Of a DNA stretch of 24,000 bases, positions 2,513 to 22,174 are shown piece by piece. The notes below the pieces were generated by a model, which was given only the letters and a program-made list of their open reading frames with translations, had not been told where the DNA came from and did no database searches. This DNA comes from Leptolyngbya sp. SIO1E4. Lineage in GTDB: Bacteria > Cyanobacteriota > Cyanobacteriia > Phormidesmidales > Phormidesmidaceae. Location: assembly GCA_010672825.2 (NCBI GenBank), contig JAAHFU020000006.1, positions 163,549-187,548 on the forward strand, given 5' to 3'. The translations under genes were made by a program, and so were the position numbers. Position 1 is the stretch's first letter, and the number at the start of each line of letters is the position of its first letter.

Positions 2513-3802
2513 GTGCCGCAAGAGAAATATAGGTTTACACCTAGTAAGGCGAAATACCTGAAAGCAATGCTGACCGAGCTTGGGAAGGTTGAGCCTGGTC
2601 TCAAAATCTGTAAGGTAAATGGAACAATTCGCTATGTCGGTCTAGCGGAGTGTATCCAGAGACTTTATGCAGAACTGTCCATCCCTGGTAAACCCATAGG
2701 TAGAGACAGCCTGTCTAAATTGATTGAATGTGATGTGCCCTTTAGAGGCCGAGAGCTTCAGTATTTAATTGATTTTCTAAAAGTCACCAATTTGTTGATC
2801 CAAAAAACTGCTCAAAAAGACCCAAGCTATATTGGCACTCAACTCCGAAGAAAAGGAGTAGTGCAGTTTGTCTTTCCTGAAGAACCTGAAGCTGCTGACT
2901 TTCAAGCATGGTTTGAGGTTGGTTCGGCGGGCTACAAAAAAGGTCGTTCTGAGACATCTAGATCTGTAATCCCAGCCGAAAGGCAAATTGTTCGCCAGAT
3001 AGCTGATGGCTTGTTGGCCATTAACTATTTCGACCAGGAAGCTGGTTGTCGGCAAGCGATCAAGCGTTTGGTGCCTGCCGGTGCATTGCTATGCGGTGCT
3101 CAAGACGATCGCGTTCAGCGCTGGATTGTGAAACGCATTGTGACCTGTTTTGAAACCAGCTATGCCAGCTTAAAGAATGCTAAACGGATAGAATTTTTTG
3201 CCCCTAGTCATCAGATGAATGCTGATTTTCGCTTGTTCTGGGATGACTTAGCCAAACAAATAGGGCTGCAAGAAGCAGATGAGAATCGTGTCATTGAGTC
3301 GATTTATGAACTGCTGAAAACGACTTCACTAGTGATTGCAGTCTATGGCATTGATCGACTTGCAGCCGACAAGCAACGGGACTTTATCGAGGCTTTCTGG
3401 AGCCAAGTGTGTCAAAGATTAGTGCAGGCCAGAGAGCTACGATCGCGCCCTCGGCGTCCAGGCAAGTCGCGTCTTATTTTGCTGATGACAGAGCAAGGAA
3501 AAGAAGGACAACCCCGCCCTTACCGGAGTACCTCGTCGCGGAATACCGAGCACCCTAATATTCCGGTTTTAATTGAGCCGTTAACAGACATTTCTTTGGA
3601 TGATGTGTACAGTTGGCTGGATAATCCGCATATCATTTCGCTAATGACGAAAATTGGGCAAGACCCAGAGGTTGTTTCTGACTTGTTGGAGCAGCGTCAG
3701 GTGCATTCTGAGCCAGCCGTAATGCTGGATGCCCTGTGCTGTGTTTTGAACCTGGAGCGAGGGTTGAATGAAGTGGAGGAGTACTGGAGGCTGGCAGGAT
3801 GA
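2513..3802 (+). CDS. Hypothetical protein with a degenerate (probably inactive) STAND/P-loop-like core; first gene of the MoxR-vWA operon
   Basis: 429-aa ORF with a GTG start preceded by AGGGGA. Its stop overlaps the next start (ATGA at 3799-3802). AGALLCGAQDDRVQRW sits where a Walker A would be but lacks GK[ST]. SLVIAVYGIDRL resembles the NACHT hhhhDGhDE Walker B with the first Asp lost. SRLILLMTEQ follows. Family assignment is by eye only. Confidence 0.65.
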   Translation: MPQEKYRFTPSKAKYLKAMLTELGKVEPGLKICKVNGTIRYVGLAECIQRLYAELSIPGKPIGRDSLSKLIECDVPFRGRELQYLIDFLKVTNLLIQKTAQKDPSYIGTQLRRKGVVQFVFPEEPEAADFQAWFEVGSAGYKKGRSETSRSVIPAERQIVRQIADGLLAINYFDQEAGCRQAIKRLVPAGALLCGAQDDRVQRWIVKRIVTCFETSYASLKNAKRIEFFAPSHQMNADFRLFWDDLAKQIGLQEADENRVIESIYELLKTTSLVIAVYGIDRLAADKQRDFIEAFWSQVCQRLVQARELRSRPRRPGKSRLILLMTEQGKEGQPRPYRSTSSRNTEHPNIPVLIEPLTDISLDDVYSWLDNPHIISLMTKIGQDPEVVSDLLEQRQVHSEPAVMLDALCCVLNLERGLNEVEEYWRLAG

Positions 3803-4869
3803 GTGAGGCTATGCGCTATGAGGGAACGCTGCAGCCGCCTGTTGAGGGTGCCCGGGATACAGAGCTACGTCGGTATTATCCCTATCTACCGGAACCGGGG
3901 TTGGTCGAAGCGGTGAATTTAGCGATTGACCTGCATCGCCCCTTGTTGTTGGAGGGGGAACCAGGCTGTGGCAAGACCCGTTTAGCAGGGGCTGTAGCCT
4001 ACGAGCTGACGCAGAAAGTTCGCCAGGGTACGAAGAAGGGGAATCAAGACTTTTGGTGGCCGTATTTCAGTTGGAATGTGAAATCGACCTCGCGGGTGCG
4101 GGATGGACTATATCGCTATGATGCCGTTAACCGTCTGCGGGATACGCAGATTGTGGGAGCTGATCCAGAGCGGCTGCAGGGCTTCTTAGATGAATCAGAA
4201 GCGGACAAGTTTCAAAAGCTGAGGCAAGAATTGAAGCAAGTTCTGCAGCGGTTGATGGATTGGGAGAAGGCTTATTTTAAGTGGGGGCCGTTGGGCGAAG
4301 CATTGCAATGGCAGAAGAATTATCGACCTATTTTGTTGATCGATGAGATTGACAAAGCCGACAGTGATTTTCCAAATGATCTGTTGCTAGAACTCGAAGA
4401 GTTTCGGTTTGATATTCCTGAGTTGGGTCAGTCGATCACACCGCCCCCAGAGGAACAGGAACCCATCATTTTTATCACCAGTAATCGGGAAAAGCCGCTG
4501 CCCGATCCCTTCCTGCGGCGCTGCGTTTATTACTATGTAGAGTTTCCGCAAAAAGGACACCTGACTGAGATTATTCAGCAGCGTTTTGAGTCTGTAAGCA
4601 AAAACGAAGCCAAGCTGATCAAGCTGGCAGTCGAACAATTTTATGCGATTCGCGAAATCCTAGAACCGCAGCCGGGGAGTCGGCCTCCAGGCACCAGTGA
4701 GTTTTTGGAATTCTTGACGGTGATTCTGCGTCGGGCTAAACGAACCTCGGTTGATGATACGGTCAAGGTTGTGGAGAAACTAGCAGAACATGACTCCCTG
4801 CTCGGCATATTGTTGAAGACGAAGGCCGATCAAGACCTTTACCACGACTACGTGAACCAAGATGATTGA
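3799..4869 (+). CDS. MoxR-type AAA+ ATPase
   Basis: 356-aa ORF. Walker A is LLLEGEPGCGKT (GEPGCGKT at 3955-3978). Walker B is PILLIDEIDKAD, followed by FPNDLLLELEE. The sensor-1 region is IIFITSNRE and the Arg-finger-like motif is LPDPFLRRC. It is translationally coupled on both sides. Confidence 0.85.
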   Translation: MSEAMRYEGTLQPPVEGARDTELRRYYPYLPEPGLVEAVNLAIDLHRPLLLEGEPGCGKTRLAGAVAYELTQKVRQGTKKGNQDFWWPYFSWNVKSTSRVRDGLYRYDAVNRLRDTQIVGADPERLQGFLDESEADKFQKLRQELKQVLQRLMDWEKAYFKWGPLGEALQWQKNYRPILLIDEIDKADSDFPNDLLLELEEFRFDIPELGQSITPPPEEQEPIIFITSNREKPLPDPFLRRCVYYYVEFPQKGHLTEIIQQRFESVSKNEAKLIKLAVEQFYAIREILEPQPGSRPPGTSEFLEFLTVILRRAKRTSVDDTVKVVEKLAEHDSLLGILLKTKADQDLYHDYVNQDD

Positions 4870-6040
4870 CACGCTGCAGCCATATCCTGATGGGCTTTTG
4901 CAGGCAATGTTTGAAGCTCTGCGAGAGGCTGGCTTGGAGCTAACGCTGGATCAGTACAGTTTGCTGCGTCGGGCTGTGCTGCTGGGGTATGGCGGCGGGT
5001 GGGATGATCTGAAGCGGTTGTGTCGTTTGCTATGGGTAAAGCCGAGCAGTCACTATGACGGTGACGTGTTCGATCGCGCTTTTGATGCCTTTGTTGAGCA
5101 ACATCAGCTCGTTCCAGTCAGGGATGACCTATCGCCACAATCAGAACTAATCGAGCCTCCTTTAGTATCTGAGCCGCCATCAGAATCGGCACTAGACCCG
5201 ACGATGAGTGAGCGATCGCTGCCCCAGGTGCCGCCGCGCAAGACGACATCGCAGCAATCTGATGACGCGGGTAAAGTGCCGACTGCCTTTAAGAGCAGCG
5301 ATAGCGTCCCACACATACCTTCTCAATACGCCTTTAAACTAAGACCAACGAGTCTGCCACTGCAAGCAACAACCGTTCCTGCCCAGTGGCAAGCCTTGCG
5401 GCAACCATTGCCAGTGAGTCGCGATGATGAGCTGGATTTATCAGCAACGGTCGATCAGATATTGCAGGAAGGAATCTTTAGTGATGTGGTGCTGCGGCCT
5501 GTGTTGGCGCGTCGGGCGGAACTACTATTGCTAGTGGATGATGCTAGCCCGATGATGCCGTTTCGCCCCGCCTTGCAGCCGCTGATTGATGCGATCACTG
5601 AGGATCGGATTACCCCCGCTCAGATATATCGCTTCACGCGATTTCCCGATGATTATCTTTATGATTGGCAGCGCAGCACGCGGGCGATTCCGATGACGAC
5701 TGTGCTGGAACGGGCGCATCAGAACCGAACGATTGCTCTGATTTGGAGTGACAGCGGTGCGGCTACTGACAGCATTGATGCCATCTATGAAACCAACATG
5801 TATCGCTTTCTGCGGCAGTTGGCGCTGAATGTGCGGGTGCTGTTTTGGCTAAATCCACTGCCTGCTAGCCGCTGGATGGACACCTCGGCTCAGCAGCTAG
5901 CTCGGATGTTAGATGGCCGGATGATGCCTCTGGGACAGGATATGTGGCGTGAGCTGACGCGGCAGATGTTGAATCCGCAGGGCGTTTATTTGCAGCCTTA
6001 CCTCTGTACTGAAAGTGCAGCATTTGAGGAGGTTCTGTGA
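4862..6040 (+). CDS. von Willebrand factor A (vWA)-like protein, partner of the MoxR ATPase
   Basis: 392-aa ORF whose start overlaps the previous stop (ATGATTGA at 4862-4869). It has an N-terminal helical region, a Pro/Ser-rich linker, then a vWA-like core. LLLLVDDASPMM sits at the MIDAS DxSxS position (partly degenerate) and IALIWSDSGAA comes later. Adjacency to a MoxR ATPase supports the call. Confidence 0.6.
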   Translation: MIDTLQPYPDGLLQAMFEALREAGLELTLDQYSLLRRAVLLGYGGGWDDLKRLCRLLWVKPSSHYDGDVFDRAFDAFVEQHQLVPVRDDLSPQSELIEPPLVSEPPSESALDPTMSERSLPQVPPRKTTSQQSDDAGKVPTAFKSSDSVPHIPSQYAFKLRPTSLPLQATTVPAQWQALRQPLPVSRDDELDLSATVDQILQEGIFSDVVLRPVLARRAELLLLVDDASPMMPFRPALQPLIDAITEDRITPAQIYRFTRFPDDYLYDWQRSTRAIPMTTVLERAHQNRTIALIWSDSGAATDSIDAIYETNMYRFLRQLALNVRVLFWLNPLPASRWMDTSAQQLARMLDGRMMPLGQDMWRELTRQMLNPQGVYLQPYLCTESAAFEEVL

Positions 6041-7611
6041 TGATAGCCCCCGTTCAAGACGCTCAGGATTTCTTACAAGTTGATACGTTTCGGAAGCGGT
6101 ATGGTGAAGCGGCTATGCGGTTGGCCTATCACGGAGCCTTTCCGCTGACGCTAACGACCAATCTGCTCTATTGCATCCGCGAAAACTTTGTCCCGGAAGT
6201 GCCCTGGTATGCGGTGGGGGATGTACTGTTATCGGGGTTATGCCGTCAGGTGGGGCACGACCTTTATGAGATGACTGCCGCAACGCGCAGGGGGTTATTA
6301 GAGGGGCTGAAGGATGACTTGGGCGATCAAGCCCAAGCTCGGGTGGAGCGCTTAGAGCAATTTATGTTGGCCTACGTGCAGCAGCGATTGGTCACAGAGA
6401 AGCACTACATCCAACGCATGATTGGGGACAAGCAAGTGTTTCGCTGGACGGCGCTGGCTCCGTTTCGCCCGGAGCAGGAGCTGGTGGAGGTAATTCGCCG
6501 CGATTTGGCCAACCTAGCTGCCAGAGATGATTCTGAGGAACGCTTTTGGTTAGCGCGGTTGGTGAAAAGTCAGGCAGATTGGTTGACGGATTCGGGGTAT
6601 CGAGTACTGTTGCTGGACTGGACGGAGCAAATTGCGGCGACGGGTACAATTGAGCCGAGTGTTGAAGCCGCTGCCAAAACGCTTGCTATTGGCTTGCCTG
6701 TGAAGCCGTTGGACTTTGAGGTGGTGATGCTGCGCCCTGCGGGGGCAACCGATGAGCTACAGCCCTTTGACTTTCAGGTGGTGACGGTCAATGCAAGGGG
6801 TGAGGAACTGACCCGCCAGACCCAGCAAGCGTTTAAGTTTCTGGAACCGTTGGGCGAAACAACACTGCCCCTGGAGATGGTGGCGATTCCTGGCGGTCAG
6901 TTTTTGATGGGTGCCCCCAAGGGTGAAAAAGATGCAATGAAGGCTGAACGCCCACAGCATCAGGTTACGATTACGCCTTTCTTTATGGGGCGAACGCCTG
7001 TGATACATGCTCAATGGCGATTTGTGGCAGGGTTGCCGCAAGTCAGTCAAAAGCTAAACACTGAGCTTGCCCGCTTTAAGAGCAATAACTTACCCATCGA
7101 GCAAGTGTCTTGGGATGATGCGATGGAGTTTTGTGCGCGGTTATCTAACTACACGCAGCGAGACTATCGACTGCCGACCGAGGCGGAGTGGGAATATGCT
7201 TGCCGCGCTGACACGACAACTCCGTTTCACTTTGGCGCGACGATCACGTCGAACTTAGCGAACTATTACGGCTCTGAGGTCTATCAGCAGGAGCCCAAGG
7301 GGGAATATCGTAATAAGACGACTCCCATTGATCATTTTGGGATAGCTAATGCCTTTGGCCTGAGTGACATGCATGGCAATGTATGGGAGTGGTGTTTGGA
7401 TCATTGGCATAGCAACTATAAAGGCGCACCAACAGATGGTAGCGCTTGGGGGACGGACGATAAGGATGCTTATCGCGTCCTACGCGGCGGCTCCTGGGAT
7501 AACTTTCCGAGGTCTTGCCGGTCTGCCTTTCGCTACGTCAATACACGCGTCCACCGCAACGACTTCATCGGTTTTCGTGTTGTGTGCGTTGCCCCGAGGA
7601 CTCTTCCATAA
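6037..7611 (+). CDS. Two-domain protein: unknown N-terminal domain plus C-terminal FGE-sulfatase (SUMF1/C-type-lectin fold) domain; DGR target 1
   Basis: 524-aa ORF with its start overlapping the previous stop (GTGA at 6037-6040; ATG at 6040). Classic FGE-sulfatase motifs are present: FDFQVVTVNARGEE, MVAIPGGQFLMG, YRLPTEAEWEYACRA, GLSDMHGNVWEWCLDHW, RVLRGGSW, GFRVVC. The hypervariable tract lies at the extreme 3' end. Confidence 0.85.
   Translation: MMIAPVQDAQDFLQVDTFRKRYGEAAMRLAYHGAFPLTLTTNLLYCIRENFVPEVPWYAVGDVLLSGLCRQVGHDLYEMTAATRRGLLEGLKDDLGDQAQARVERLEQFMLAYVQQRLVTEKHYIQRMIGDKQVFRWTALAPFRPEQELVEVIRRDLANLAARDDSEERFWLARLVKSQADWLTDSGYRVLLLDWTEQIAATGTIEPSVEAAAKTLAIGLPVKPLDFEVVMLRPAGATDELQPFDFQVVTVNARGEELTRQTQQAFKFLEPLGETTLPLEMVAIPGGQFLMGAPKGEKDAMKAERPQHQVTITPFFMGRTPVIHAQWRFVAGLPQVSQKLNTELARFKSNNLPIEQVSWDDAMEFCARLSNYTQRDYRLPTEAEWEYACRADTTTPFHFGATITSNLANYYGSEVYQQEPKGEYRNKTTPIDHFGIANAFGLSDMHGNVWEWCLDHWHSNYKGAPTDGSAWGTDDKDAYRVLRGGSWDNFPRSCRSAFRYVNTRVHRNDFIGFRVVCVAPRTLP
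7477..7611 (+). repeat. DGR variable region 1 (variable core 7501-7569; may start as early as 7411)
   Basis: Aligned to 9607-9741 (offset 130). There are 24 identical nt (7477-7500), then 21 mismatches in 70 nt, 20 of them at codon positions 1-2. Then come 29 identical nt, GGTTTTCGTGTTGTGTGCGTTGCCCCGAG. Confidence 0.75.
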
Positions 7612-7644
7612 CCCTTTAGCGCTTTTTACTCTCTTACTTTCTTT

Positions 7645-7657
7645 GGCGCGAAGCGCC
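7645..7657 (+). promoter_or_regulatory. Conserved GC stem-loop GGCGC-GAA-GCGCC followed by a T-run, downstream of VR1; DGR target-recognition hairpin and/or terminator
   Basis: 5-bp GC stem with a 3-nt loop, followed by TCGAATTTTTTTG. A paralogous copy downstream of VR2 keeps the stem and changes the loop. Confidence 0.45.
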
Positions 7658-7704
7658 TCGAATTTTTTTGGAAAATGGTGATTATTGTTGATTGAGCCTT
7701 TCCC

Positions 7705-8043
7705 ATGAACGATCTACCCATCATCCAGAAGACCTATGACTTGATTAAGTGGTATATACCCATTCTCAATAAGCTACCTAAAGAGCATAAGTTTACCTTG
7801 GGTGATCGCATCACCAACAGACTGTACGATTTACTCGAAGGATTGATTCAGGCCCGTTATACCCGCCAGAAACTGCCGCAACTCTATGAACTCAATCTCC
7901 AGCTTGAGCTTTTGCGTCACCAAACTCGGTTGCTGTTGGATTTTGACCTGATGTCCGCCAAACGCTATGCCTACGTTGGTCAGCAAATCAATGGGATTGG
8001 CATCGAACTCGGTGGATGGATTAAGCAGCAGAGAGAAGCATGA
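7705..8043 (+). CDS. avd: Avd-like four-helix-bundle protein (DGR accessory variability determinant)
   Basis: 112-aa ORF. It shows the motif style typical of this family: [45 protein letters not shown]. Its stop overlaps the RT start (ATGA at 8040-8043). Confidence 0.8.
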
Positions 8044-8927
8044 AACGTTACGGCAACTTCTGGCCCGACATTATTGATTTTGAAAACTTGCTGCAGGCGG
8101 CGCGGCAAGCCCAGCGCGGCAAGCGGTATCGCCCGAATGTACTGGCCTTTAACTACAACCTGGATAAGGAACTCCTGCAATTGCAGCGAGAGCTGCAGGA
8201 AAAAACGTATCGACCAGGCAAGTATCGTACTTTCAAAATTGAAGATCCTAAGCCGCGTTTAATTTCAGCCGCACCTTACCGGGACAGAGTCGTCCATCAC
8301 GCCCTGTGCAACATTATTGTGTCGCCCCTCGAACGGACATTCATAACCGATACCTATGCCAATCGTGTTGGGTATGGCACTCACCGCGCTCTGCGTCGAT
8401 TTGTTCACTTCGCTCGCACCAGTCGCTATGTGTTGCAATGTGATGTCCGCAAATACTTTCCTAGCTTGGATCATGTGATTCTCAAAACCATGATTCGACG
8501 CAAAATCAAGTGCCCAGATACCCTTTGGCTAATTGACACGATTATTGATGGCAGCAATCCTCAAGGCGAAACCATTGAGTACTTTCCTGGGGATGATCTG
8601 TTAGCACCCGTGCAACGACGTCGGGGACTTCCGATTGGCAACCTCACCAGCCAGTTCTTTGCCAACCTATATTTGAATGGGTTTGACCATTTTGTTAAAG
8701 AACAGCTCAAATCTCGTAAGTACCTAAGGTATGTTGATGATTTTGCGTGCTTTGCGGACGATCGCTCTTTTCTGGTGGATGCGCGATCGCACATCGAAGC
8801 CTATCTCAAGACCTTGCGACTGCGGCTGCATCCCGTGAAAAGCCAGTTGTTTGAAACTAGGTTTGGCGCTAATTTCGTCGGCTTTCGCGTGCTGCCCGAT
8901 CTCATTCGTGTCCGCAGAGTTTTCTAG
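8040..8927 (+). CDS. DGR-type reverse transcriptase, apparently lacking the C-terminal thumb region
   Basis: 295-aa ORF. RT motifs: [50 protein letters not shown] (8634-8678, DGR hallmark), YVDD (8730-8741), LHPVKSQ and FVGFRV. The ORF stops 8 codons after FVGFRV, where DGR RTs normally continue for tens of residues. Confidence 0.9.
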
Positions 8928-8952
8928 CCCCATCCCCTACTATCCCTTTCCC

Positions 8953-9741
8953 ATGCCTGAATTAGTTGCTCAGCGGGAACGCCGCAAAACGCTTTATGTA
9001 ACTGAACCCCTTGGCTCAAAGTTGGGGTTAGATATAGTGATCATCCCTGGCGGTAGCTTTTTAATGGGGTCTCCTGATGACGATCCTGATAGGCTCAGTA
9101 ACGGTAGTGAAGAACCCCAGTACCTCGTTACAGTGCCTACCTTTTTGATGGGACGTTATCCCGTTACTCAAGCCCAGTGGCAGTTTGTTGCAGGACTGAA
9201 GCAAAAGAAGCGAAAGCTAGATCCCAATCCGGCACATTTCAAAGGTGATGTTCGCCCGGTGGAATCGGTGTCTTGGGACGATGCAGTGGAATTCTGCGAT
9301 CGGCTCTCAATCCATAGTGGACGCGAGTATCGCCTGCCTACTGAAGCCGAATGGGAATATGCCTGCCGTGCTGGCACAACAACGCCTTATCACTTTGGTG
9401 AGAGCATCAACACTAACCTAGCTAACTATAACGGCAAATATAAGGGCACCACTGCTGTTGATCACTTTGGGATTGCCAATGCCTTTGGCCTAAGCGATAT
9501 GCATGGCAATGTATGGGAGTGGTGTTTGGATCATTGGCATGACAGTTATGAAGGAGCACCCACGGATGGTAGTACTTGGGTAAAGGACGGTGAGGATGCT
9601 TATCGAGTCCTACGCGGCGGCTCCTGGGATTGCCTTCCGTGGCATTGCCGGTCTGCCTCTCGCGACGCCTATACGAGCAACTGCCGCACCGACGACTACG
9701 GTTTTCGTGTTGTGTGCGTTGCCCCGAGAACTCTTCCGTAA
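8953..9741 (+). CDS. Stand-alone FGE-sulfatase/C-type-lectin-fold protein; DGR target 2, which looks like a 5'-truncated paralogue of target 1
   Basis: ATG at 8953 gives MPELVAQRERRKTLYVTEPLGSKLGLDIVIIPGGSFLMG... This parallels ...GEELTRQTQQAFKFLEPLGETTLPLEMVAIPGGQFLMG in target 1. It has the same FGE motifs through GFRVVCVAPRTLP. The track ORF begins at a TTG at 8851, overlapping the RT, and would add a signal-peptide-like [22 protein letters not shown]. The start is unresolved. Confidence 0.8.
   Translation: MPELVAQRERRKTLYVTEPLGSKLGLDIVIIPGGSFLMGSPDDDPDRLSNGSEEPQYLVTVPTFLMGRYPVTQAQWQFVAGLKQKKRKLDPNPAHFKGDVRPVESVSWDDAVEFCDRLSIHSGREYRLPTEAEWEYACRAGTTTPYHFGESINTNLANYNGKYKGTTAVDHFGIANAFGLSDMHGNVWEWCLDHWHDSYEGAPTDGSTWVKDGEDAYRVLRGGSWDCLPWHCRSASRDAYTSNCRTDDYGFRVVCVAPRTLP
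9607..9741 (+). repeat. DGR variable region 2 (variable core 9631-9699)
   Basis: Paralogue of 7477-7611. The flanks are identical and the core differs at 21 of 70 positions, with the differences at codon positions 1-2. Confidence 0.75.
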
Positions 9742-9774: not shown

Positions 9775-9787
9775 GGCGCGGAGCGCC
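9775..9787 (+). promoter_or_regulatory. Second copy of the post-VR stem-loop (GGCGC-GGA-GCGCC) followed by a T-run
   Basis: Same position relative to the stop codon as 7645-7657. The stem is conserved and the loop reads GGA instead of GAA. It is followed by TCGAAATTTTTTG. Confidence 0.45.
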
Positions 9788-9922: not shown

Positions 9923-9961
9923 TTAGGAAATCTGGCTGGATGTTGCAACCAGATTTCCTAA
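9923..9961. repeat. Perfect 13-bp inverted repeat TTAGGAAATCTGG / CCAGATTTCCTAA with a 13-nt spacer
   Basis: The arms are 9923-9935 and 9949-9961. It lies in the non-coding gap between the DGR block and the conjugation block. No T-run follows it, so it is not a typical intrinsic terminator. Confidence 0.6.
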
Positions 9962-12154: not shown

Positions 12155-13873
12155 ATGACTGAATCTAACCAGCCGCCTCAATCACCCCACCCCATTGTGA
12201 CCTCGTCTTCCTTCGCAGGTGAATCATCCAACTCATTGAATGGCCATGGCTCGTCAGAGCCCACAACCGCTGCCGAATTGGCAGGGCTCCAGCTCGACGC
12301 AGAGGATAGGCTCGCCGCCTCAGAGCCACTCCCCGAAACGCCCAGCCCAACGACGAGTCGTCGCAGCATTGCCCATGCCCCCTTACCGCGAACCCTTCTC
12401 GTCGCCGGGGCACTGGGCTTCGTCGCGACCTTTACGCTCATATTTAGTCGCCTCAACAGTGGTAATCGACCGGTGGCAGACACCCCCGAAGCGCCTGAAG
12501 CCCCACCGGAAGAACCCTTTGACCAGAGCGATGTCTACCGGAGCCAACTCGCCTTAGTCGATCAGGCGGACGCTCAACAGCCTCAAGCCGCTCCCACTCC
12601 CCCCTCGGAGCCGCCACCTGTCGCCGAGGAAGACCCACCGGAAGCGCCGCCAACCGTCGCCACGGCGGCACCCTCCCCGCCGCCGAGACCGACTCCCGCC
12701 GCACAACCCGAACCGCCTCCGCGATCCGCTCCCGCCGCACAACCCGAGCCCGAACCCATCGATCCCTTCGAGCGCTGGCATACGTTGGCACAAGCGGGCA
12801 CACAAGGAGAACAGTTCGCCCTCGTGCCACCGGTTGAACCCGCGGCCCCCCTGACCGTCACGCCGGGGAACACGTCTGACACGAGTCCCCCCTCGAATCC
12901 GGTCGCGCCGATCGAGGTCGCAGCGGCCGCCGGAACCGCTGGATTCCCCGTCGCGATCATCGGCGACAATCCCATCGAGGGGATGCCACCTCCCAGCGCT
13001 CCATCCGCTGAGCCTGCCTTCTCAACACCCATACCACAGCCCCAATCCCAGGAGTCGCAGGCGTCTCTTTTAGTCTCAGCGCCACCGTCGATTCCGATTC
13101 AGACCGCCCAAACCAGTTCCCCAGGCGCACAGGGCATCCTCGAACGGCGTCCGGTCAGTGGTATTCAGACGGAACCGCAGACGATTCAGGGCAATACGCA
13201 GGTGTTACAGGTACCCATGGGCACGACAGCCGCTGCCGAACTCGCGGTCCCCATCGTCGCCTCTCGGAGTGGGGAAACCTTGGGACGCTTTGCCGTCCGC
13301 CTCAAAGACGACCTCAAAGATCCCTACGACCAGGTCGCCTTACCCGCAGGCACCCTGCTGATCACAGATGTCCTCAGCATCGATGATGATTCCTTGGCCA
13401 TTCAACAAACCGTCGTCGCACTCGTTTATGAGGACGCCCAAGGACAGATTGTACAAGAGGCCATCGCCCCGAATGTCCTCATTATTCGGGGCAGTGATGG
13501 CGGAGCCTTGATCGCGTCCCTCTCAGGCGGCGGCAATCGTCGCAACCTGTTTACCGACATCCTGGCAATTGGCGGGGCGTCAGCGCTAGCGGAAGTGGGA
13601 AGCGCCCTCAACGAGGGTGACCTCTTCACCTCCACGGCCAGCAGTTCCGATGGTGATGAGACCGAAACGACCACCACCACCGTCCGCGATAGTGATGACC
13701 CGAATGTTCTCGGGGCCGTTATGGAAGGCTTCTTTGAGTCCACGGCTGACCGGCTGCAGGGTGAAATTGAGGACGACCGGGATAATGACGAGGATCTCGA
13801 TCCCGTCCTGACCGTCACTCAGGGTCAAGACTTACAAGTCTTTGTCAACGGCATCTTGAACATCCGGAGGTAG
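12155..13873 (+). CDS. VirB10/TrbI-like protein
   Basis: 572-aa ORF with the classic VirB10 layout. It has an N-terminal cytoplasmic tail, one TM (LLVAGALGFVATFTLIF) and a long Pro-rich region (includes PPRPTPAAQPEPPPRSAPAAQPEPEP). The C-terminal domain reads LQVPMGTTAAAELAVPIVAS...GRFAVRLKDDL...LPAGTLLITDV...VLIIRGSDGGALIA. Confidence 0.65.
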   Translation: MTESNQPPQSPHPIVTSSSFAGESSNSLNGHGSSEPTTAAELAGLQLDAEDRLAASEPLPETPSPTTSRRSIAHAPLPRTLLVAGALGFVATFTLIFSRLNSGNRPVADTPEAPEAPPEEPFDQSDVYRSQLALVDQADAQQPQAAPTPPSEPPPVAEEDPPEAPPTVATAAPSPPPRPTPAAQPEPPPRSAPAAQPEPEPIDPFERWHTLAQAGTQGEQFALVPPVEPAAPLTVTPGNTSDTSPPSNPVAPIEVAAAAGTAGFPVAIIGDNPIEGMPPPSAPSAEPAFSTPIPQPQSQESQASLLVSAPPSIPIQTAQTSSPGAQGILERRPVSGIQTEPQTIQGNTQVLQVPMGTTAAAELAVPIVASRSGETLGRFAVRLKDDLKDPYDQVALPAGTLLITDVLSIDDDSLAIQQTVVALVYEDAQGQIVQEAIAPNVLIIRGSDGGALIASLSGGGNRRNLFTDILAIGGASALAEVGSALNEGDLFTSTASSSDGDETETTTTTVRDSDDPNVLGAVMEGFFESTADRLQGEIEDDRDNDEDLDPVLTVTQGQDLQVFVNGILNIRR

Positions 13874-13877
13874 ACCT

Positions 13878-14783
13878 ATGCGCCAGATTTTAAGGTCCGT
13901 CATGCTTTCTTTTGTGCCCTTCGTTGCAGCCATCCCCATCATCAGTACACCAGCTCCGGCGATCGCTCAGGTCTTACCGTCCGTAGATTCTGAATTTCTG
14001 CCACCGCTGCGGCACGCCCAGCAATCGGTCGCCTTTGTCAGTCAAGAGCGGGCCTATCGCTATGCCACCCCGATTCGTCTCTATCCAGGCCGCAGTGAGA
14101 TGATTGACTTCCGAACCGATGAAGTCATCACCTACATCCAACTCTCGGATCTCTCGGGCATTGTCTATCAGACCAATGCTCCCTTGGAGTCCGGCCAAGC
14201 GAAGCTGATTGCCTTGCGTCGGATCGAGGAGCTGGACTTCCCTGGCCAAACCGAAAGTCCGGTCCCCAACTTACTGGTGACCACCATCGACCCCCAAGGC
14301 GAACAACGCACCTACACCTTCAACCTGATATCTCACAACCGACAACCGCAAGCCGATGACACCAATGGCGTTGCCATCGTCACCGCCGCCGAAGCCCAGA
14401 CAGAGCGGCTCAATATGCGACGCAATGAGGGTCACCTCACGGGGGAAACCACCCTCACCGTCGATACCTTGCAAACCGCTTTGGGGCTCGCCGATATTGA
14501 TGACCTGGTCGTGGGCCTCGATACCGCGATCGCCTTGGGCTATACCCCAGCCAACGATCCAGTCGTCGCTCAAACCCAAACGGTCATTGATCTAGTTGAA
14601 GCGGGCACCCCCTTACGGCAGGCCATTCAAGACGCAGGGCTGCCTATCGAGGTGGCGATCGCGCTCGGTGAAATCGGTCTGAGGAGTGCATTCTTCCCGA
14701 TTGATGGCCCAGAACCCCCAGCTGAAGTACCGGCTGAAGACATCGAGCCCCGTAGCGAGGAGGAGCCGGATGTCGCCCCTTAA
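13878..14783 (+). CDS. Secreted VirB9/TrbG-like protein
   Basis: 301-aa ORF with a signal peptide (MRQILRSVMLSFVPFVAAIPIISTPAPAIAQ). The N-terminal domain pattern is IRLYPGRSEMIDFRTDEVITYIQLSD...AKLIALRRIE...NLLVTTID...RTYTFNLI. It lies between the VirB10-like and VirD4-like genes. Confidence 0.55.
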   Translation: MRQILRSVMLSFVPFVAAIPIISTPAPAIAQVLPSVDSEFLPPLRHAQQSVAFVSQERAYRYATPIRLYPGRSEMIDFRTDEVITYIQLSDLSGIVYQTNAPLESGQAKLIALRRIEELDFPGQTESPVPNLLVTTIDPQGEQRTYTFNLISHNRQPQADDTNGVAIVTAAEAQTERLNMRRNEGHLTGETTLTVDTLQTALGLADIDDLVVGLDTAIALGYTPANDPVVAQTQTVIDLVEAGTPLRQAIQDAGLPIEVAIALGEIGLRSAFFPIDGPEPPAEVPAEDIEPRSEEEPDVAP

Positions 14784-16593
14784 TCGCGATCCGCTGGCAC
14801 AGATAGAGCAGGCAGAACAGACGACGGAAGAGCCGCCCCTCTGGATGGAGCCGATCGCAACCACCTGGGACACAATATCCGCGATGCTATTCAATGCACA
14901 GGGCCTAGCACTGATTAGCATTTTTGCCGTCCTGATGATTCTGCAACTGTTTGCCCGCAAACGCGGCGACTTGACTTCGGCCCGGTGGGCCAGAGGACGT
15001 GAGAAGGGCCAAGCCCGCAAACGAGCCCAGAAGCAACTTAAGAGCAACCGCATCAACGACGTGACGCTGTGGTGCGGCACGCCCAACACATCATCGACGC
15101 TCTATATTCCCGATGCCAATCAAAGTATCGTCGTCATTGGGCGACCGAAGTCTGGTAAAACCTTCAGCGTCATCAATCCGCTGCTCAAATCCGCGATCGA
15201 GCAACAGATGGCCCTGTGCCTCTATGACTACAAGGCCGATGACCAGGGCTTAGGCGGACAGATGGCCTACATTGCGACCTTGGCCGCTCGGCATGACTAC
15301 AAGGTGAATGTCTTTGCCCCAGGGCGGCCCTATAGTTGTGTCATCAATCCCCTCGATTTTCTGGAAGACGAGAATGACGACACCACTGCCGCCGTCCTCG
15401 CTGAGGTGTTCCACAAAAATCTGAAGGGGGACAAGGGACGGGGGGATGACTTCTTCGGCCCCGCTGGACAACGCTTGATTCAAGCCTTATTCCAGTTTGC
15501 GAAATCGACGCCATATCCCGATATCGCCATGGCCTTCAGTATCGCTCGATTGACTCATTTACCCGAGCGATTGATTTATGCCGACCAGCAGGGACGCTTA
15601 CCGCTAGCCGTTCGCATTGCCTTTTCTCAGCTGATGCAAACAGCGGGGGCTGAGAAAACCACCTCTGGCATTACAGCCACGGCCAGTGATGTGCTAACCC
15701 GCTTCATGAGTCAGCGCATCCTGCCCTCGCTCATGGGCAAAACCAACATCAGCATTGAACTGGGGCAGAAAGAACTCATCGTTTTTCAGAGCGATATCTT
15801 TCGGCAAGCCGTTGTCAACCCCTTACTGGCCGCCCTCATCAACGTCATCATCGACCGGAATTTCTCGATTCAGCGAACGGTCCCCTTAGTCTTTAGTGCC
15901 GATGAATTTCCCACCCTGTATCTTCCAAAGTGTCCCACTTGGCCCAACGAGCATCGCTCCAAAGGCTTTGTCGGCATCTTTGGCTTCCAGTCCTTCCCCC
16001 AGATTCGCGACACCTATGGTCGGGAAAAGACCGATATCTTACTGTCCGGGGTCGGTACTCATTTCTGGTTCAATCCCGGCAACCGGGATACCGCCAAAGC
16101 CTATTCTGACTACATCGGGGAGACCGAAATCACGATTCGCAATACCTCCTGGTCAAGGCAGCGCGGCGACGACCGGGGGCGCAACCGCACGATATCCGAG
16201 CAGACCCGCACCCGGCCTCTGATTCTAGCCGACGATATCACCCGCTTTGATGTTGGGGAATGTATCGTGATCAATCCGGCTTACCGCAATCAAAAGCAAG
16301 CCAACTTGCCCCAACACGTCAATCAGATTCGCATTTCTGAGGCCGATCAAACCCTGGAAAAGCACTGCGAACAGCTCTGGCAAGAAAAGATCAGGCCGCA
16401 GCTCATTCAACGCGAACAGCGACGACGACCCGACCTCGACATTGAGGCCCAGCTCCAGCTTCGCATCGACGAAGCCGAGCGGCGATTACCCCTGCCTCCC
16501 GACAAGGCAGAAGACTCCGGTGGAACACCCCCGGCTCTCGCCAATCACAAACAGACTCCCGCTGCGGTGGGACGCTTTATCCCTGACCTATAA
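14770..16593 (+). CDS. Type IV coupling protein (VirD4/TraG/TraD family ATPase)
   Basis: ATG at 14770 is preceded by GAGGAGGAG and overlaps the previous gene's end; the track ORF begins earlier at 14686. It has an N-terminal TM (GLALISIFAVLMILQLF). Walker A is VVIGRPKSGKTF (GRPKSGKT at 15139-15162). Walker-B-like is LVFSADEFPTLY. GIFGFQSFPQIRDTYG is typical of T4CPs. Confidence 0.85.
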   Translation: MSPLNRDPLAQIEQAEQTTEEPPLWMEPIATTWDTISAMLFNAQGLALISIFAVLMILQLFARKRGDLTSARWARGREKGQARKRAQKQLKSNRINDVTLWCGTPNTSSTLYIPDANQSIVVIGRPKSGKTFSVINPLLKSAIEQQMALCLYDYKADDQGLGGQMAYIATLAARHDYKVNVFAPGRPYSCVINPLDFLEDENDDTTAAVLAEVFHKNLKGDKGRGDDFFGPAGQRLIQALFQFAKSTPYPDIAMAFSIARLTHLPERLIYADQQGRLPLAVRIAFSQLMQTAGAEKTTSGITATASDVLTRFMSQRILPSLMGKTNISIELGQKELIVFQSDIFRQAVVNPLLAALINVIIDRNFSIQRTVPLVFSADEFPTLYLPKCPTWPNEHRSKGFVGIFGFQSFPQIRDTYGREKTDILLSGVGTHFWFNPGNRDTAKAYSDYIGETEITIRNTSWSRQRGDDRGRNRTISEQTRTRPLILADDITRFDVGECIVINPAYRNQKQANLPQHVNQIRISEADQTLEKHCEQLWQEKIRPQLIQREQRRRPDLDIEAQLQLRIDEAERRLPLPPDKAEDSGGTPPALANHKQTPAAVGRFIPDL

Positions 16594-17259: not shown

Positions 17260-20200
17260 ATGGTATTAACTTTGCTGGGGATTTCAGTCAAGCTGCTTTT
17301 ATTAACTAAAAGTATGGAAGAGTCCAGAGCTGTTTCTCTCCTCCGGGAACTGTTAGATGCCACAAGCTTGAGTGACTTGCAGGAAGATATTTTTCGTCGT
17401 TCGTGGCGGGGACTTTCTTACTCTCAAATATCTGTCGAGCTTGGATACGATACCGGTTATGTCAGGGTTGTTGGATTTCAGCTTTGGCAAGCACTTTCTG
17501 GCGTTTTAGGGCAACCTGTTACCAAGAAAAACCTGCGCTCTAGTTTTGAGCAGTATGGTCAACAGCTTGCCGCACCATCGCCAAGATCAAGTGCAGCGAT
17601 AACGCCAACTGACGTCGCAGCCGCCTGCCCTCAAGATTGGGGCGATCGCCCTGACCTGACTAGCCTCTACGGTCGCGAGTCTGAGCTAGCCCTATTGCGA
17701 GACTGGATTCGGCGCGATCGCTGTCGGCTCATTGGGATTTTTGGCATCGGCGGCATTGGCAAAACGGTGATTGCGGCTCACTGTGCCCAGCAGCTTCAGG
17801 ATGAGTTTCAGTATGTGTTTTGGCGATCGCTGCGCAATGCGCCTCCCCCGGATCAATTTTTGGTAGAGGCTATTCAGTTTTTATCCGATCAGCAAGAAAT
17901 TGCCCAAAACCTGCCGCTAGACGTGGCCGATCGCATTGACCACTTGCTGGGATATCTCAAACGGCAACGGTGCTTGGTCATCCTCGATAATGCGGAGGCG
18001 ATCTTACAGAGCGGCGCATATACGGGGCGCTATCGGCCTGGTTATGAAACCTACGGCAGCCTACTGCAGCAAATGGGAGAAGAACACCATCAAAGTTGTG
18101 TGTTGCTCACCAGCCGGGAAAAGAGCCGCGAGTTCGTACGGCTGGCGGGTGACCAGTTACCCGTGCGAGCACTGCAATTAGGTGGTCTGGCTGCCGCCGA
18201 AGGACAGGCAGTGATGGAGCAAGCCGGGACGTTTGCGGCGACCCCTGCGGTGTGGCAACAGCTAGTGGATTTCTACGTGGGCAATCCCCTGGCGTTACGG
18301 ATTGCGGGGGCGGCGATTCAAGAACTCTTTGCCGGTGAAGTGGCGCGCTTTTTGGACTATTCGGTGTATGTCTTTGACGACATTAATGATTTGCTGGACG
18401 AGCAGTTCAGCCGACTGTCAGCGTTGGAGCAGCAGGTCATGTATTGGCTGGCGATCGAGCGCGAGCCCGTGACCATCGAAACCCTGGCAGCCAACATTTT
18501 GGAGTCCGTGGCCAAACGGGACCTTATGGAAGCGCTGAAATCTCTCGTGCGGCGATCGCTGATTTACCCGGCGGCGATGGGCTTTACCCAGCAACCTGTG
18601 GTCATGGAATATCTCGTCGAACGGTTGCGGGTGCAAATGCAGCAGGAGATTATCTCTCAGAGTCCCAACCTGCTGATTAGCCATGCCCTGATCAAAAACC
18701 AAGCCAAGGAATATGTCAAAACCAGTCAGCAGCGGGTATTAGTCGATCCGCTCGGTCGGGCGCTGTTGGATGAACTTGGCAGTCTGGCGGCGCTGGCCGA
18801 CCAGCTACAACAGTTGACGGACTTGTTGCGATCGGGTTGGGCCGAACGCGCTGGCTATGCTGCCGGTAACATTCTCTATTTGCTGCAGCAGTGCAGGCTA
18901 GATTTGCAGAACTACGACCTGTCGCAGTTGCCTTTGCGTCAAGTTGACCTGCAAATGACGGCTCTGCCAGGGGTCAACCTACAAGGGGCAGTGCTAGATC
19001 AGACGGTGTTTGCTAACAACCTGGACTATTACATGTCAGTCGCCATCTCACCAAACCAGCGGTACATTGCCGTCGGCAGCACTGAAGGCGACGTTATTCT
19101 GTGGGACTTTCCCGAAATGAGGTCTCACCGAGTCCTGCGGGGGCATGGGCCGATGTTTGTGGTTTGGTTGGCCTTTAGCGCTGATGGTCAGTATCTGGCC
19201 AGTGCTGGGTTTGATCACGCAGTCAAGGTTTGGCATATCGAGACGGCAACCTGTGTGGCGACCTTACAGGCGCATCGCGGGCCGGTCGGCGCTGTCGTTT
19301 TTACGCCTGATGGCAGCCAGTTGATTTCTAGCAGTCACGATGGCCAAATCATCTTTTGGGAAACGACGAACTGGACCTGTGTGCAAGCGATCCAGGCCGA
19401 CCCAGGACAGGTGGCCGCGATCGCCCTCAGTCCCGACGGCAGGACGTTACTGAGTGGCCACGAGCTGGGCCAGATTGAGTTACGGGATTTATCTACCGGC
19501 GATCGCCGGGTCAGCCACGAGCATCACAACGCTTACATTTGGGCGGCAGTCTACCCCACCACGGGTAACCAGGTCTTCTCCGCGAGCCATGACCAAACGA
19601 TCCGGGCGTGGAATGTGGAGACTGGCGAGTGCCTATTTACCCTCACAGGCCATCAAGGTGAAATATCGGGTCTCGCCTGTACTCCCGACGGGCGCATCTT
19701 AGCCAGTGCGTGTCACGACCAAACAGTCCGCTTATGGGATGCGCAAACGGGAAAATGTCTGAATGTTTTGCAAGGGCATCAGGGGATCGTTTGGGATGTT
19801 GATATCAGCCCAGATGGTGAAATCCTCACCAGCGTAGGGTTTGATCGCAGCGTGCGGCTGTGGGAAATCAAAACGGGACGACCGCTAAAAACCCTGCAGG
19901 GCAGTTATAAAGCGCTTTGGTCAGTGATATTTAGCCCCGATGGCCGAACGCTGATCAGCGGCGGCGAAGATCGGCGTATCTGGTTATGGGATTTTGAACG
20001 GCGAACGTATACCCATCAGTGGACGGCCCACACGTATGAAATTACGGCGATCGCCATTCACCCTCAAGGCCAGATACTGGCGACCGGTGGTGGCGATGGC
20101 ACGGTTAAATTGTGGGACCTAGACACCGGCCAATGTTTACACACCCTGGTTGACTATCAGGCTTGGCTCTGGGCGATCGCCTTTAGTCCCGATGGGCGCT

Positions 20201-20886
20201 GGGTCGCGGGCACCGGCCATCGCTACAGCACCTGTGTTTGGGATGTGTATACGGGGCAATGCGTCGCCACCCTAGACGAGCACCATCAAAATTTGGTCTG
20301 GAGTCTGGCTTTCAGCCACGATGGTCAATACATGGTCACAGGCTGTCACGATCTCACACTGAGATTATGGCACCTCGAAACTTGGGACTGCTTTGCCGCG
20401 TTGTCCGGACAGATCAAGGGATACATCAACAGTGTCGATTGCAGCCCCAATAGTCACCTCATCGCCTGCGGCGGTTACGACGCTCAGGTTTACATCTGGG
20501 ATGCGGAGGCCCAGACTTGTCTGCACGTTTTACCCGGACATCAAGGCGTGATCTGGAACGTGAAATTTAGTCCGACGGGCGATCGCATTGCCAGTACCAG
20601 TTTTGACGGCACCGTGCGGGTGTGGGATGTGCAGACGGGGGAATGTTTGCAGACGCTAGCGGGTCACCAGAGCTTTGTGAACTCCGCCTGCTTCCATCCC
20701 CACGACAACATTTTGGTCAGCGCTAGTCGCGACGGCACTCTAAAAGTGTGGGACTTGGCGACGGGCGATTGTACCGCCACCCTCAGCCCACCCAAAATGT
20801 ACGAGGGGCTGAACATCACGGGCGTGCGGGGACTCGACCCCGTGCAGCGAGAAATGCTGTTGGCCCTGGGCGCGATCGAGCATTAA
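17260..20886 (+). CDS. STAND NTPase: N-terminal sigma-r4/LuxR-like HTH, NB-ARC-type P-loop NTPase, 14 WD40 repeats
   Basis: 1208-aa ORF; the more likely start is ATG at 17314 (MEESRAV...). The HTH-like segment is LSDLQEDIFRRSWRGLSYSQISVELGYDTGYVRVVGFQLWQAL. Walker A is LIGIFGIGGIGKT (17743-17766) and Walker B is CLVILDNAE. Fourteen WD repeats span ~19030-20770. The tail YEGLNITGVRGLDPVQREMLLALGA is typical of cyanobacterial WD40 proteins. Confidence 0.9.
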   Translation: MVLTLLGISVKLLLLTKSMEESRAVSLLRELLDATSLSDLQEDIFRRSWRGLSYSQISVELGYDTGYVRVVGFQLWQALSGVLGQPVTKKNLRSSFEQYGQQLAAPSPRSSAAITPTDVAAACPQDWGDRPDLTSLYGRESELALLRDWIRRDRCRLIGIFGIGGIGKTVIAAHCAQQLQDEFQYVFWRSLRNAPPPDQFLVEAIQFLSDQQEIAQNLPLDVADRIDHLLGYLKRQRCLVILDNAEAILQSGAYTGRYRPGYETYGSLLQQMGEEHHQSCVLLTSREKSREFVRLAGDQLPVRALQLGGLAAAEGQAVMEQAGTFAATPAVWQQLVDFYVGNPLALRIAGAAIQELFAGEVARFLDYSVYVFDDINDLLDEQFSRLSALEQQVMYWLAIEREPVTIETLAANILESVAKRDLMEALKSLVRRSLIYPAAMGFTQQPVVMEYLVERLRVQMQQEIISQSPNLLISHALIKNQAKEYVKTSQQRVLVDPLGRALLDELGSLAALADQLQQLTDLLRSGWAERAGYAAGNILYLLQQCRLDLQNYDLSQLPLRQVDLQMTALPGVNLQGAVLDQTVFANNLDYYMSVAISPNQRYIAVGSTEGDVILWDFPEMRSHRVLRGHGPMFVVWLAFSADGQYLASAGFDHAVKVWHIETATCVATLQAHRGPVGAVVFTPDGSQLISSSHDGQIIFWETTNWTCVQAIQADPGQVAAIALSPDGRTLLSGHELGQIELRDLSTGDRRVSHEHHNAYIWAAVYPTTGNQVFSASHDQTIRAWNVETGECLFTLTGHQGEISGLACTPDGRILASACHDQTVRLWDAQTGKCLNVLQGHQGIVWDVDISPDGEILTSVGFDRSVRLWEIKTGRPLKTLQGSYKALWSVIFSPDGRTLISGGEDRRIWLWDFERRTYTHQWTAHTYEITAIAIHPQGQILATGGGDGTVKLWDLDTGQCLHTLVDYQAWLWAIAFSPDGRWVAGTGHRYSTCVWDVYTGQCVATLDEHHQNLVWSLAFSHDGQYMVTGCHDLTLRLWHLETWDCFAALSGQIKGYINSVDCSPNSHLIACGGYDAQVYIWDAEAQTCLHVLPGHQGVIWNVKFSPTGDRIASTSFDGTVRVWDVQTGECLQTLAGHQSFVNSACFHPHDNILVSASRDGTLKVWDLATGDCTATLSPPKMYEGLNITGVRGLDPVQREMLLALGAIEH

Positions 20887-22108: not shown

Positions 22109-22174
22109 TTCCCGATAAACCGAATTACCAAAATTATTCAGTTCCCGATAAACTGCATTACCAAAATTATTCAG
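22109..22174. repeat. Tandem 33-bp direct repeat, 2 copies, 31/33 identical
   Basis: TTCCCGATAAACCGAATTACCAAAATTATTCAG (22109-22141) is immediately followed by TTCCCGATAAACTGCATTACCAAAATTATTCAG (22142-22174). It lies ~240 bp upstream of the TIR gene start. Confidence 0.8.

Follow-up and report, generated by a model that had tools for sequence, protein, structure and literature searches.

Two variable repeats of a probably inactivated cyanobacterial DGR in Leptolyngbya sp. SIO1E4

Two paralogous 3′ gene ends in Leptolyngbya sp. SIO1E4 are very probably the variable repeats (VR1 and VR2) of a single chromosomal diversity-generating retroelement (DGR) of a cyanobacterial clade, the cassette of which was apparently disabled by a deletion of ~0.56 kb that probably left both repeats frozen. 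Unless a second DGR elsewhere in the genome acts in trans, the locus is a recently inactivated member of a known cyanobacterial DGR clade. The following features were identified in the window, i.e., the whole stretch of 24,000 nucleotides that was analyzed.

2513-3802, + strand: iSTAND-domain protein (PF19995 iSTAND, E = 8e-13)
3799-4869, + strand: AAA ATPase (AAA_5/AAA; MadB-like AAA, the latter match assigned to the neighborhood 2513..6040 of three upstream genes)
4862-6040, + strand: SAV_2336-N-terminal-like protein (NF041121, E = 1e-7, below cut-off, likewise assigned to the neighborhood 2513..6040)
6037..7611, + strand: target gene 1, the long target, 524 aa if counted from the earliest possible start; start codon uncertain
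7482..7598, + strand: VR1, with boundaries from the TR/VR homology of the relative L002 (template repeat, TR, at L002 1899-2015); invariant 5′ part 7482-7500, diversified core 7501-7568, invariant 3′ part 7569-7598
7645..7657, + strand: GC hairpin GGCGC-GAA-GCGCC followed by a T-run, 34 nt past the target 1 stop codon
7705..8043, + strand: avd (accessory variability determinant), 112 aa, intact
8040..8927, + strand: 3′-truncated DGR reverse transcriptase (RT), 295 aa, ending just past motif 7, without thumb
8916..8917, + strand: probable deletion junction; homology to L001/L002 ends at 8916
8953..9741, + strand: target gene 2, the short target (CLec domain only), 262 aa, intact, MBE7385780.1
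9612..9728, + strand: VR2, diversified core 9631-9698
9775..9787, + strand: GC hairpin GGCGC-GGA-GCGCC followed by a T-run, 34 nt past the target 2 stop codon

The two gene ends differ in an unusual manner. In the pairwise alignment of 7477-7611 with 9607-9741 (a true offset of 2130; the 130 given in the original prediction is apparently a slip), 24 nucleotides free of mismatches (7477-7500) are followed by 21 mismatches between 7501-7570 and 9631-9700, of which 11 affect first, 9 second, and 1 (aca/acg, at 7545) third codon positions, in agreement with what had been described. The first mismatch 3′ of the core is at 7599, after 30 identical nucleotides rather than the 29 first counted, and the remaining two differences (7599 and 7608) are both at third codon positions. 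The proportion of core mismatches at codon positions 1 and 2 (20 of 21) exceeds the expected two thirds (P = 0.0023, binomial test), and it also differs from the paralog divergence at 7318-7476, where 11 changes fall at positions 1 and 2 and 15 at position 3 (P = 1.4e-4, Fisher's test). The dN/dS ratio is 7.7 for 7501-7569 (dN 0.52, dS 0.07; NG86), whereas it is 0.12 for 7318-7476 just upstream of the core (NG86). The mixed pattern noticed earlier in 7411-7476 is likewise evident (16 mismatches, with 4, 5, and 7 at codon positions 1, 2, and 3), and its reading as ordinary drift gains support from the relatives, in which TR/VR homology begins at the equivalent of 7482. At 7 of the 21 differing sites A is absent from both copies, so neither VR could have served as the template of the other, as had been argued. 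When A is placed at every differing site, the core contains 7 AAC and 2 AAT codons, the same count as reported before.

Both target genes end in an FGE-sulfatase/CLec-fold domain. In target 1, PF03781 covers residues 280-516 (E = 3e-55); its N-terminal extension of 280 aa has no Pfam match, and the exact ORF is absent from the protein collection. Target 2 also matches PF03781 (E = 8e-54) and is 63% identical to the J06559_3 ortholog P0138 over 100% of its own length. The VRs make up the last ~43 codons of the targets, and the PF03781 matches extend into them, reaching residue 516 of 524 in target 1 and residue 254 of 262 in target 2; the VRs are located at the 3′ ends of CLec/FGE-fold target genes, as in other DGRs. 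No population variants of the VRs were found in the protein collection, where the clusters of target 2, Avd, and RT are singletons. The stops and starts of the three genes upstream of target 1 (2513..6040) overlap, and these genes and target 1 apparently constitute one operon. A similar gene context has been described for cyanobacterial clade 5E DGRs (PMC10907252).

Each VR is followed by a GC hairpin, and a hairpin after the VR is conserved in the relatives L002 and L004. The hairpins in the window have a 5-bp stem and a 3-nt loop, which is shorter than the published DGR target hairpin with a 7-10 bp stem and a GRNA loop (PMC3240598), and an Rfam scan of the window returned no match. The hairpin 3′ of target 1 may serve as a DGR target hairpin, as a terminator, or in both roles; the hairpins after each VR are equally well described as terminators.

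Two genes that the original prediction did not mention, avd and an RT gene whose start is overlapped by avd, sit between the two VR copies and support the DGR reading. Avd scores 142.9 bits against NF033474 DivGenRetAVD (cut-off 80), also matches PF22296 bAvd, and is named DGR Avd by NCBI; it is identical to the L002 Avd at 99 of 112 residues (dN/dS 0.05). DGR RTs are reportedly marked by [I/L/V]GxxxSQ instead of the QGxxxSP of group II introns, and YxDD is also expected in this lineage. The RT in the window retains IGNLTSQ and YVDD, and its homologs, 70-89% identical, are located beside adenine-biased TR/VR pairs. It is, however, not full-length, with 295 aa, whereas the RTs of 78 relatives are 305-424 aa long (median 353). 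The missing part is a conserved C-terminal block of ~55 residues, which aligns to about residues 274-315 of Bordetella bRT (8ub7), a structure matched by the full-length relative P0002 at E = 1e-46. The bRT thumb touches the template:primer duplex and the "Thumb Ring" of the spacer RNA (bioRxiv 10.1101/2023.10.23.563531). Judging from this structure and from general knowledge of polymerases, the thumb-less RT of 295 aa would be inactive. The RT fragment and avd are nevertheless uninterrupted, both with dN/dS of about 0.05 relative to L002, so that the loss is young compared with the divergence from the L002 lineage.

The closest intact relatives are L001 and L002 (RT 89% identical), and they stay the closest because the best relative in metagenomes is only 82% identical. 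The gene order in L001/L002 and in L004-L006 is target-avd-RT-TR-(DUF29)-target, and mismatches between the TR and its own VR in the intact relatives are found at adenines only (12 of 12 and 10 of 10). Among related loci overall, 1275 of 1445 TR/VR mismatches are at TR adenines; an adenine-biased TR is present within 700 nt past the RT stop in 58 of 75 loci, and in 55 of these 58 it lies within 100 nt of the stop (median 22 nt). The orthologous TR of L002 agrees well with the variable sites in the window, as 17 of the 21 sites are A in that TR (hypergeometric P = 3.5e-9). The proposal of an A at every differing site is supported for these 17 and is insecure at 7545, 7546, 7549, and 7568, which are not A in the L002 TR. 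The A-filled reconstruction is identical to the orthologous TR at 103 of 117 positions, compared with 96 and 90 for the VRs themselves. Between the two VR copies, the non-adenine positions are still identical, except possibly at four.

The template that the original prediction hoped to find is absent from the window, and its expected site after the RT falls in the stretch that appears to be deleted. Neither a search for direct repeats nor a search with both flanking motifs, mismatches allowed, found a third VR/TR copy in the 24 kb, and no TR differing from the VRs at adenines was detected there by blastn-short with VR1, VR2, and the reconstructed template or by a scan for AAC/AAT codon density. 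A degenerate VR/TR pattern, which the VRs of the window themselves fit, gave 0 matches in genome_contigs and 0 in metagenome_contigs, neither of which contains the source genome. Homology to L001/L002 is lost after 8916 and resumes at 8917, which corresponds to L002 2155 (score 21 versus 13.3±2.5 for shuffled sequences, 5 of 500 of which reach 21), and the right breakpoint is approximate. Relative to L002, ~558 bp (L002 1597-2154) are absent; this segment holds ~60-65 C-terminal RT codons, the entire TR, and the spacer that follows it. The junction joins unique RT coding sequence to unique target 2 leader and does not lie at a VR/TR repeat boundary, and collapse of repeats during assembly is for this reason thought unlikely. 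We infer that the gap is a real deletion; as the source assembly is a metagenome bin, it may instead reflect misassembly or a deletion allele present in only a minority.

These observations can be accommodated in one scenario. The ancestral order would have been long target (VR1), avd, RT, TR, and short target (VR2). The RT-Avd complex would have copied a TR-bearing RNA into cDNA, misincorporating nucleotides opposite template adenines, and this cDNA would then have replaced both VRs. Such homing would keep the non-adenine positions identical in both copies while AAC and AAT codons were randomized, which would explain why the differences are confined to codon positions 1 and 2. A later deletion of ~0.56 kb would have taken the RT thumb, the whole TR, and the downstream spacer RNA, so that the local cassette could no longer make cDNA, and VR1 and VR2 would be frozen records of the last homing events. 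As it stands, the local cassette appears to be inactive, with both variants probably frozen. This presumes that VR1 and VR2 are served by no other DGR of the genome, which seems probable.

An unlikely alternative to such freezing is that both VRs are still diversified in trans by a second intact DGR elsewhere in SIO1E4, which would provide an RT and a compatible TR-spacer RNA and might use the local Avd. Several closely related DGR RTs are often carried by multicellular cyanobacteria (PMC10907252), and the two VRs with their downstream hairpins, the two target ORFs, and avd have all remained intact, with almost no drift between the copies at invariant VR positions. The near-identity of the non-adenine VR positions fits very recent loss and ongoing homing equally. 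However, the TR directly follows its own RT in 55 of the 58 resolved loci of this clade, and this site is deleted here. Furthermore, the truncated RT is the only one from SIO1E4 among the best 120 RT homologs (to ~74% identity), a weak negative given an incomplete bin, and no other SIO1E4 target is found among the listed matches to target 2. The 120 best matches to the VR-bearing C-terminal 80 aa of target 2 include no short TR-like ORF from SIO1E4, also a weak negative, which concerns short proteins only and comes from a list that lacks the parent protein of the query. It is somewhat less probable still that loss of the TR and the thumb was a selected "lock-in" of two useful receptor specificities, with the targets as sensors of an iSTAND/AAA conflict system, or that the locus belongs to a split multi-locus DGR in which Avd and the targets are served in trans.

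We regard it as quite improbable that the RT 3′ end and the TR were lost only in assembly of the metagenome bin and that the organism itself has an ordinary DGR with all its parts. Assemblies can indeed suffer from VR/TR repeats: in L002 a stretch of N comes immediately 3′ of VR1, and many related contigs terminate at the cassette or close to it. Yet the junction at 8916/8917 is in unique sequence and not at the VR/TR boundary, where a collapse would be expected, the source contig is 343,755 bp long, and similar natural decay is found in the independent relative L048 (Nostoc sp. P2164 bin 3), in which the RT is cut at 305 aa and no TR is present. Ordinary paralog divergence under diversifying selection, or patchy gene conversion, in the absence of a retroelement is hardly credible: the mismatch pattern alone would allow it, any difference being compatible with a template A, but this reading is already effectively refuted by the Avd match and the coincidence of variable sites with orthologous TR adenines (P = 3.5e-9), together with the DGR RT between the copies and the sharp edges of the variable block at the TR boundaries of the relatives.

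This locus leaves knowledge of the DGR mechanism unchanged and, as an instance of DGR decay, is nothing out of the ordinary. The adenine-mutagenesis pattern of a DGR can nonetheless be recognized from two VRs alone after the template has been lost, and an orthologous TR can be used to validate the inferred template. The locus would represent a clean early stage of DGR switch-off, in which one deletion removes the RT thumb and the TR while sparing avd, the targets, and the VRs. It bears on surveys in which "active" DGRs are counted, and finders that require a TR/VR pair would miss it.

The locus most resembles the cyanobacterial DGRs of clade 5E (Doré et al. 2024, PMC10907252; Vallota-Eastman et al. 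2020, PMC7517822), whose RTs are 70-89% identical to that in the window. Shared features are the overlap of avd with the RT start, one long and one short CLec/FGE target, VRs at the extreme C-terminus, and an AAA ATPase with conflict-type neighbors (iSTAND here; TIR, VMAP, and AAA_5 in L004). The window locus differs in lacking the TR, which in the relatives lies at a median of 22 nt past the RT stop, and the C-terminal ~60 residues of the RT. It also shares with the prototype, Bordetella phage BPP-1 (mtd-avd-TR-brt), the same inferred adenine-specific mutagenic retrohoming, an RT with Avd, a CLec-fold target C-terminus, and a GC hairpin after each VR, with a 5-bp stem and 3-nt loop here versus 8 bp and GAAA in BPP-1. 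In BPP-1, however, the TR is placed between avd and the RT, whereas in the clade of the window locus it follows the RT, and the window locus, unlike BPP-1, is chromosomal, has two targets, and is apparently disabled. Degraded remnants are known from Anabaena sp. 90, with an RT only (PMC7517822), and from L048, which has lost the TR and the RT beyond about residue 305. In contrast to these remnants, the window locus keeps avd, both targets, and both VRs intact, and its RT fragment bears no further damage; this is apparently decay at its first step, with the mutagenesis pattern still clean.

The two paralogous gene ends at 7477-7611 and 9607-9741 align base by base at an offset of 2130, so the offset of 130 in the original prediction is a slip. 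The leading 24 nt show no differences, and the next 70 nt (7501-7570) carry 21 mismatches, distributed over codon positions 1, 2 and 3 as 11, 9 and 1; the total and the single third-position change are as had been counted. The identical stretch 3′ of this variable block is also present, at 30 nt instead of the predicted 29, and two third-position differences (7599 and 7608) are located directly 5′ of the TAA common to both genes. In the upstream region (7411-7476), 16 differing sites are spread across all three codon positions. The codon-position bias in the core is not due to chance, either against the 2/3 expectation (P = 0.0023, binomial test) or against the paralogue divergence at 7318-7476 (P = 1.4×10−4, Fisher's exact test), and dN/dS is 7.7 in the core vs 0.12 immediately upstream. 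At 7 of the 21 differences A is absent from both copies, which rules out one copy as the template of the other and agrees with the earlier claim that neither templates the other.

The machinery of a diversity-generating retroelement (DGR), namely a reverse transcriptase (RT) and the accessory variability determinant (Avd), is located between the two gene ends and had been overlooked. The NCBI annotation already calls this Avd a DGR protein. The source, Leptolyngbya sp. SIO1E4, is a metagenome bin. The features, including those following the two variable repeats (VR1, 7482-7598; VR2, 9612-9728), are:

6037-7611, target 1, with an FGE-sulfatase/CLec-fold C-terminus (PF03781, E = 3e-55)
7645-7657, short GC hairpin and T-run after VR1, kept in close relatives
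7705-8043, Avd (PF22296; NCBIfam "diversity-generating retroelement protein Avd", 142.9 bits, cut-off 80)
8040-8927, RT (RVT_1; IGNLTSQ and YVDD)
8953-9741, target 2, a short protein with the FGE-sulfatase domain only
9775-9787, short GC hairpin and T-run after VR2, kept in close relatives

Both hairpins fall short of the published DGR target hairpin in length, and each hairpin with its T-run may be just a terminator. Three genes whose stop and start codons overlap lie 5′ of target 1; they encode an iSTAND-domain protein, an AAA ATPase and a SAV_2336-N-terminal-like protein. At 9925-9959, ~185 nt 3′ of target 2, there is an 11-bp inverted repeat without mismatches (AGGAAATCTGG ... CCAGATTTCCT, 13-nt loop). 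Further downstream on the forward strand, a TrbI-like protein (under the Pfam cut-off) and a VirD4/TraG-type coupling protein are encoded at 12155-16593, which suggests a conjugative or integrative element adjoining the DGR locus; the TrbI-like ORF contains a tandem duplication (12670-12741, 36 nt ×2, 78% identity). The same strand encodes a 1208-aa protein at 17260-20886, with WD40 repeats in its C-terminal half (Pfam, ~residues 590-1175), and, at 23102-24000, two tandem TIR domains (TIR_2, E = 1e-53) in a gene cut by the window end; these two domains correspond to paired repeats of 81 nt (23228, 23834). Another tandem duplication (33 nt ×2, 94% identity) is at 22109-22174.

No third repeat copy or template repeat (TR) was found in the 24-kb window by repeat finding, with both flanking motifs (mismatches allowed), by blastn-short using either VR or the reconstruction of the template, or in a search for frames rich in AAC/AAT. 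The intact relatives nearest to the window are L001 and L002 of Cyanobacteria bacterium J06559_3 (RT 89% identical, 357 aa) and L004-L006 of Nodosilinea (83% identical, 370 aa), all ordered long target, avd, RT, TR, (DUF29), short target. In L002, the TR at 1899-2015 has 12 mismatches to one VR and 10 to the other, every one at a TR adenine. A survey covered 80 related loci, all from species-representative genomes; 75 of them were testable, having an RT and sufficient flanking sequence downstream, and 58 of these have an adenine-biased TR within 700 nt past the RT stop (within 100 nt in 55 of the 58; median 22 nt). TR adenines account for 1275 of the 1445 TR/VR mismatches in the survey, and the loci with no detectable TR/VR pair are mostly on short contigs. 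An N run at 193-292 of L002 starts directly after the VR1 stop codon and several related contigs terminate at the cassette; evidently, short-read assemblies are broken by VR/TR repeats.

Both window VRs align colinearly with the TR of L002, which carries adenine at 17 of the 21 variable sites (30 of its 117 nt are A; P = 3.5×10−9, hypergeometric test). Together with Avd and RT between the copies, this supports the DGR reading originally made. Filling A at every differing site gives 103/117 identity to the L002 TR, compared with 96 for VR1 and 90 for VR2; the rule agrees with that TR at those 17 sites and is less secure at 7545, 7546, 7549 and 7568, where the TR reads G, C, G and T. At each of these four sites (and +2130), A in one window VR stands against the L002 base in the other, suggesting a lineage-specific TR with gained adenines and VRs rewritten at different times or, alternatively, ordinary substitutions to A after homing. 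TR/VR homology in relatives starts at the equivalent of 7482 and stops near 7598; the differences at 7411-7476 fall outside it and are thus ordinary drift, as had been guessed.

The window RT is 295 aa long, compared with 305-424 aa (median 353) in 78 measurable relatives, and in the alignment it ends just after motif 7 and lacks a conserved ~55-residue block, NxNLRRAR...SWEAHLxHGDT, which aligns to ~residues 274-315 of Bordetella bRT (8ub7). In cryo-EM work on bRT-Avd-RNA, the thumb makes contact both with the template:primer duplex and with the "Thumb Ring" of the spacer, and cDNA synthesis requires the spacer RNA flanking the TR (bioRxiv 10.1101/2023.10.23.563531). DNA homology to L001/L002 ends at 8916 and restarts at 8917, equivalent to L002 2155 (the right breakpoint is approximate), so ~558 bp are absent relative to L002, comprising the RT 3′ end, the entire TR and its spacer. 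Past the junction, the RT frame runs for three further codons to a stop 25 nt 5′ of the target 2 ATG. This loss looks recent relative to the divergence from the J06559_3 lineage of L002, because the RT fragment and avd contain no frameshift or stop (dN/dS ~0.05 each vs L002) and VR1 equals VR2 at every position that is non-adenine in the orthologous TR, bar 7545, 7546, 7549 and 7568.

Probably, a single TR would once have rewritten both VRs by adenine-specific mutagenic retrohoming, after which a deletion would have disabled the local cassette and left the two VR variants frozen. It is unlikely that both VRs are still served by another DGR elsewhere in the genome, given weak negatives among the best RT homologues and the best matches listed for the VR-bearing C-terminus. 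It is very unlikely that the missing RT end and TR are an assembly artefact, since the junction sits in unique sequence with no repeat boundary. Divergence with no DGR at all is scarcely credible, being contradicted by the Avd profile match (142.9 bits) and by the coincidence of the variable sites with L002 TR adenines.

The locus belongs to the cyanobacterial DGR clade of Vallota-Eastman et al. 2020 (PMC7517822) and Doré et al. 2024 (PMC10907252), in which a long and a short CLec target lie beside AAA/MoxR-type conflict-system genes. It has the RT lineage, Avd and target/VR of a DGR, lacks a TR and full-length RT, and is best classed as a DGR that was inactivated recently. Degraded DGRs were known earlier, e.g., in Anabaena sp. 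90 (PMC7517822). An independent decayed DGR of the same clade is found in Nostoc sp. P2164 bin 3 (L048 971-4357, NZ_JBALDU010000057.1), in which Avd is shortened to 80 aa, the RT is cut at 305 aa and a TR is lacking; its target is caspase-like/FGE with a VR-like C-terminus, and dnaA follows on the opposite strand. The window locus is an element of known kind, and its added interest lies only in a clean early stage of inactivation through loss of the TR and the RT thumb.
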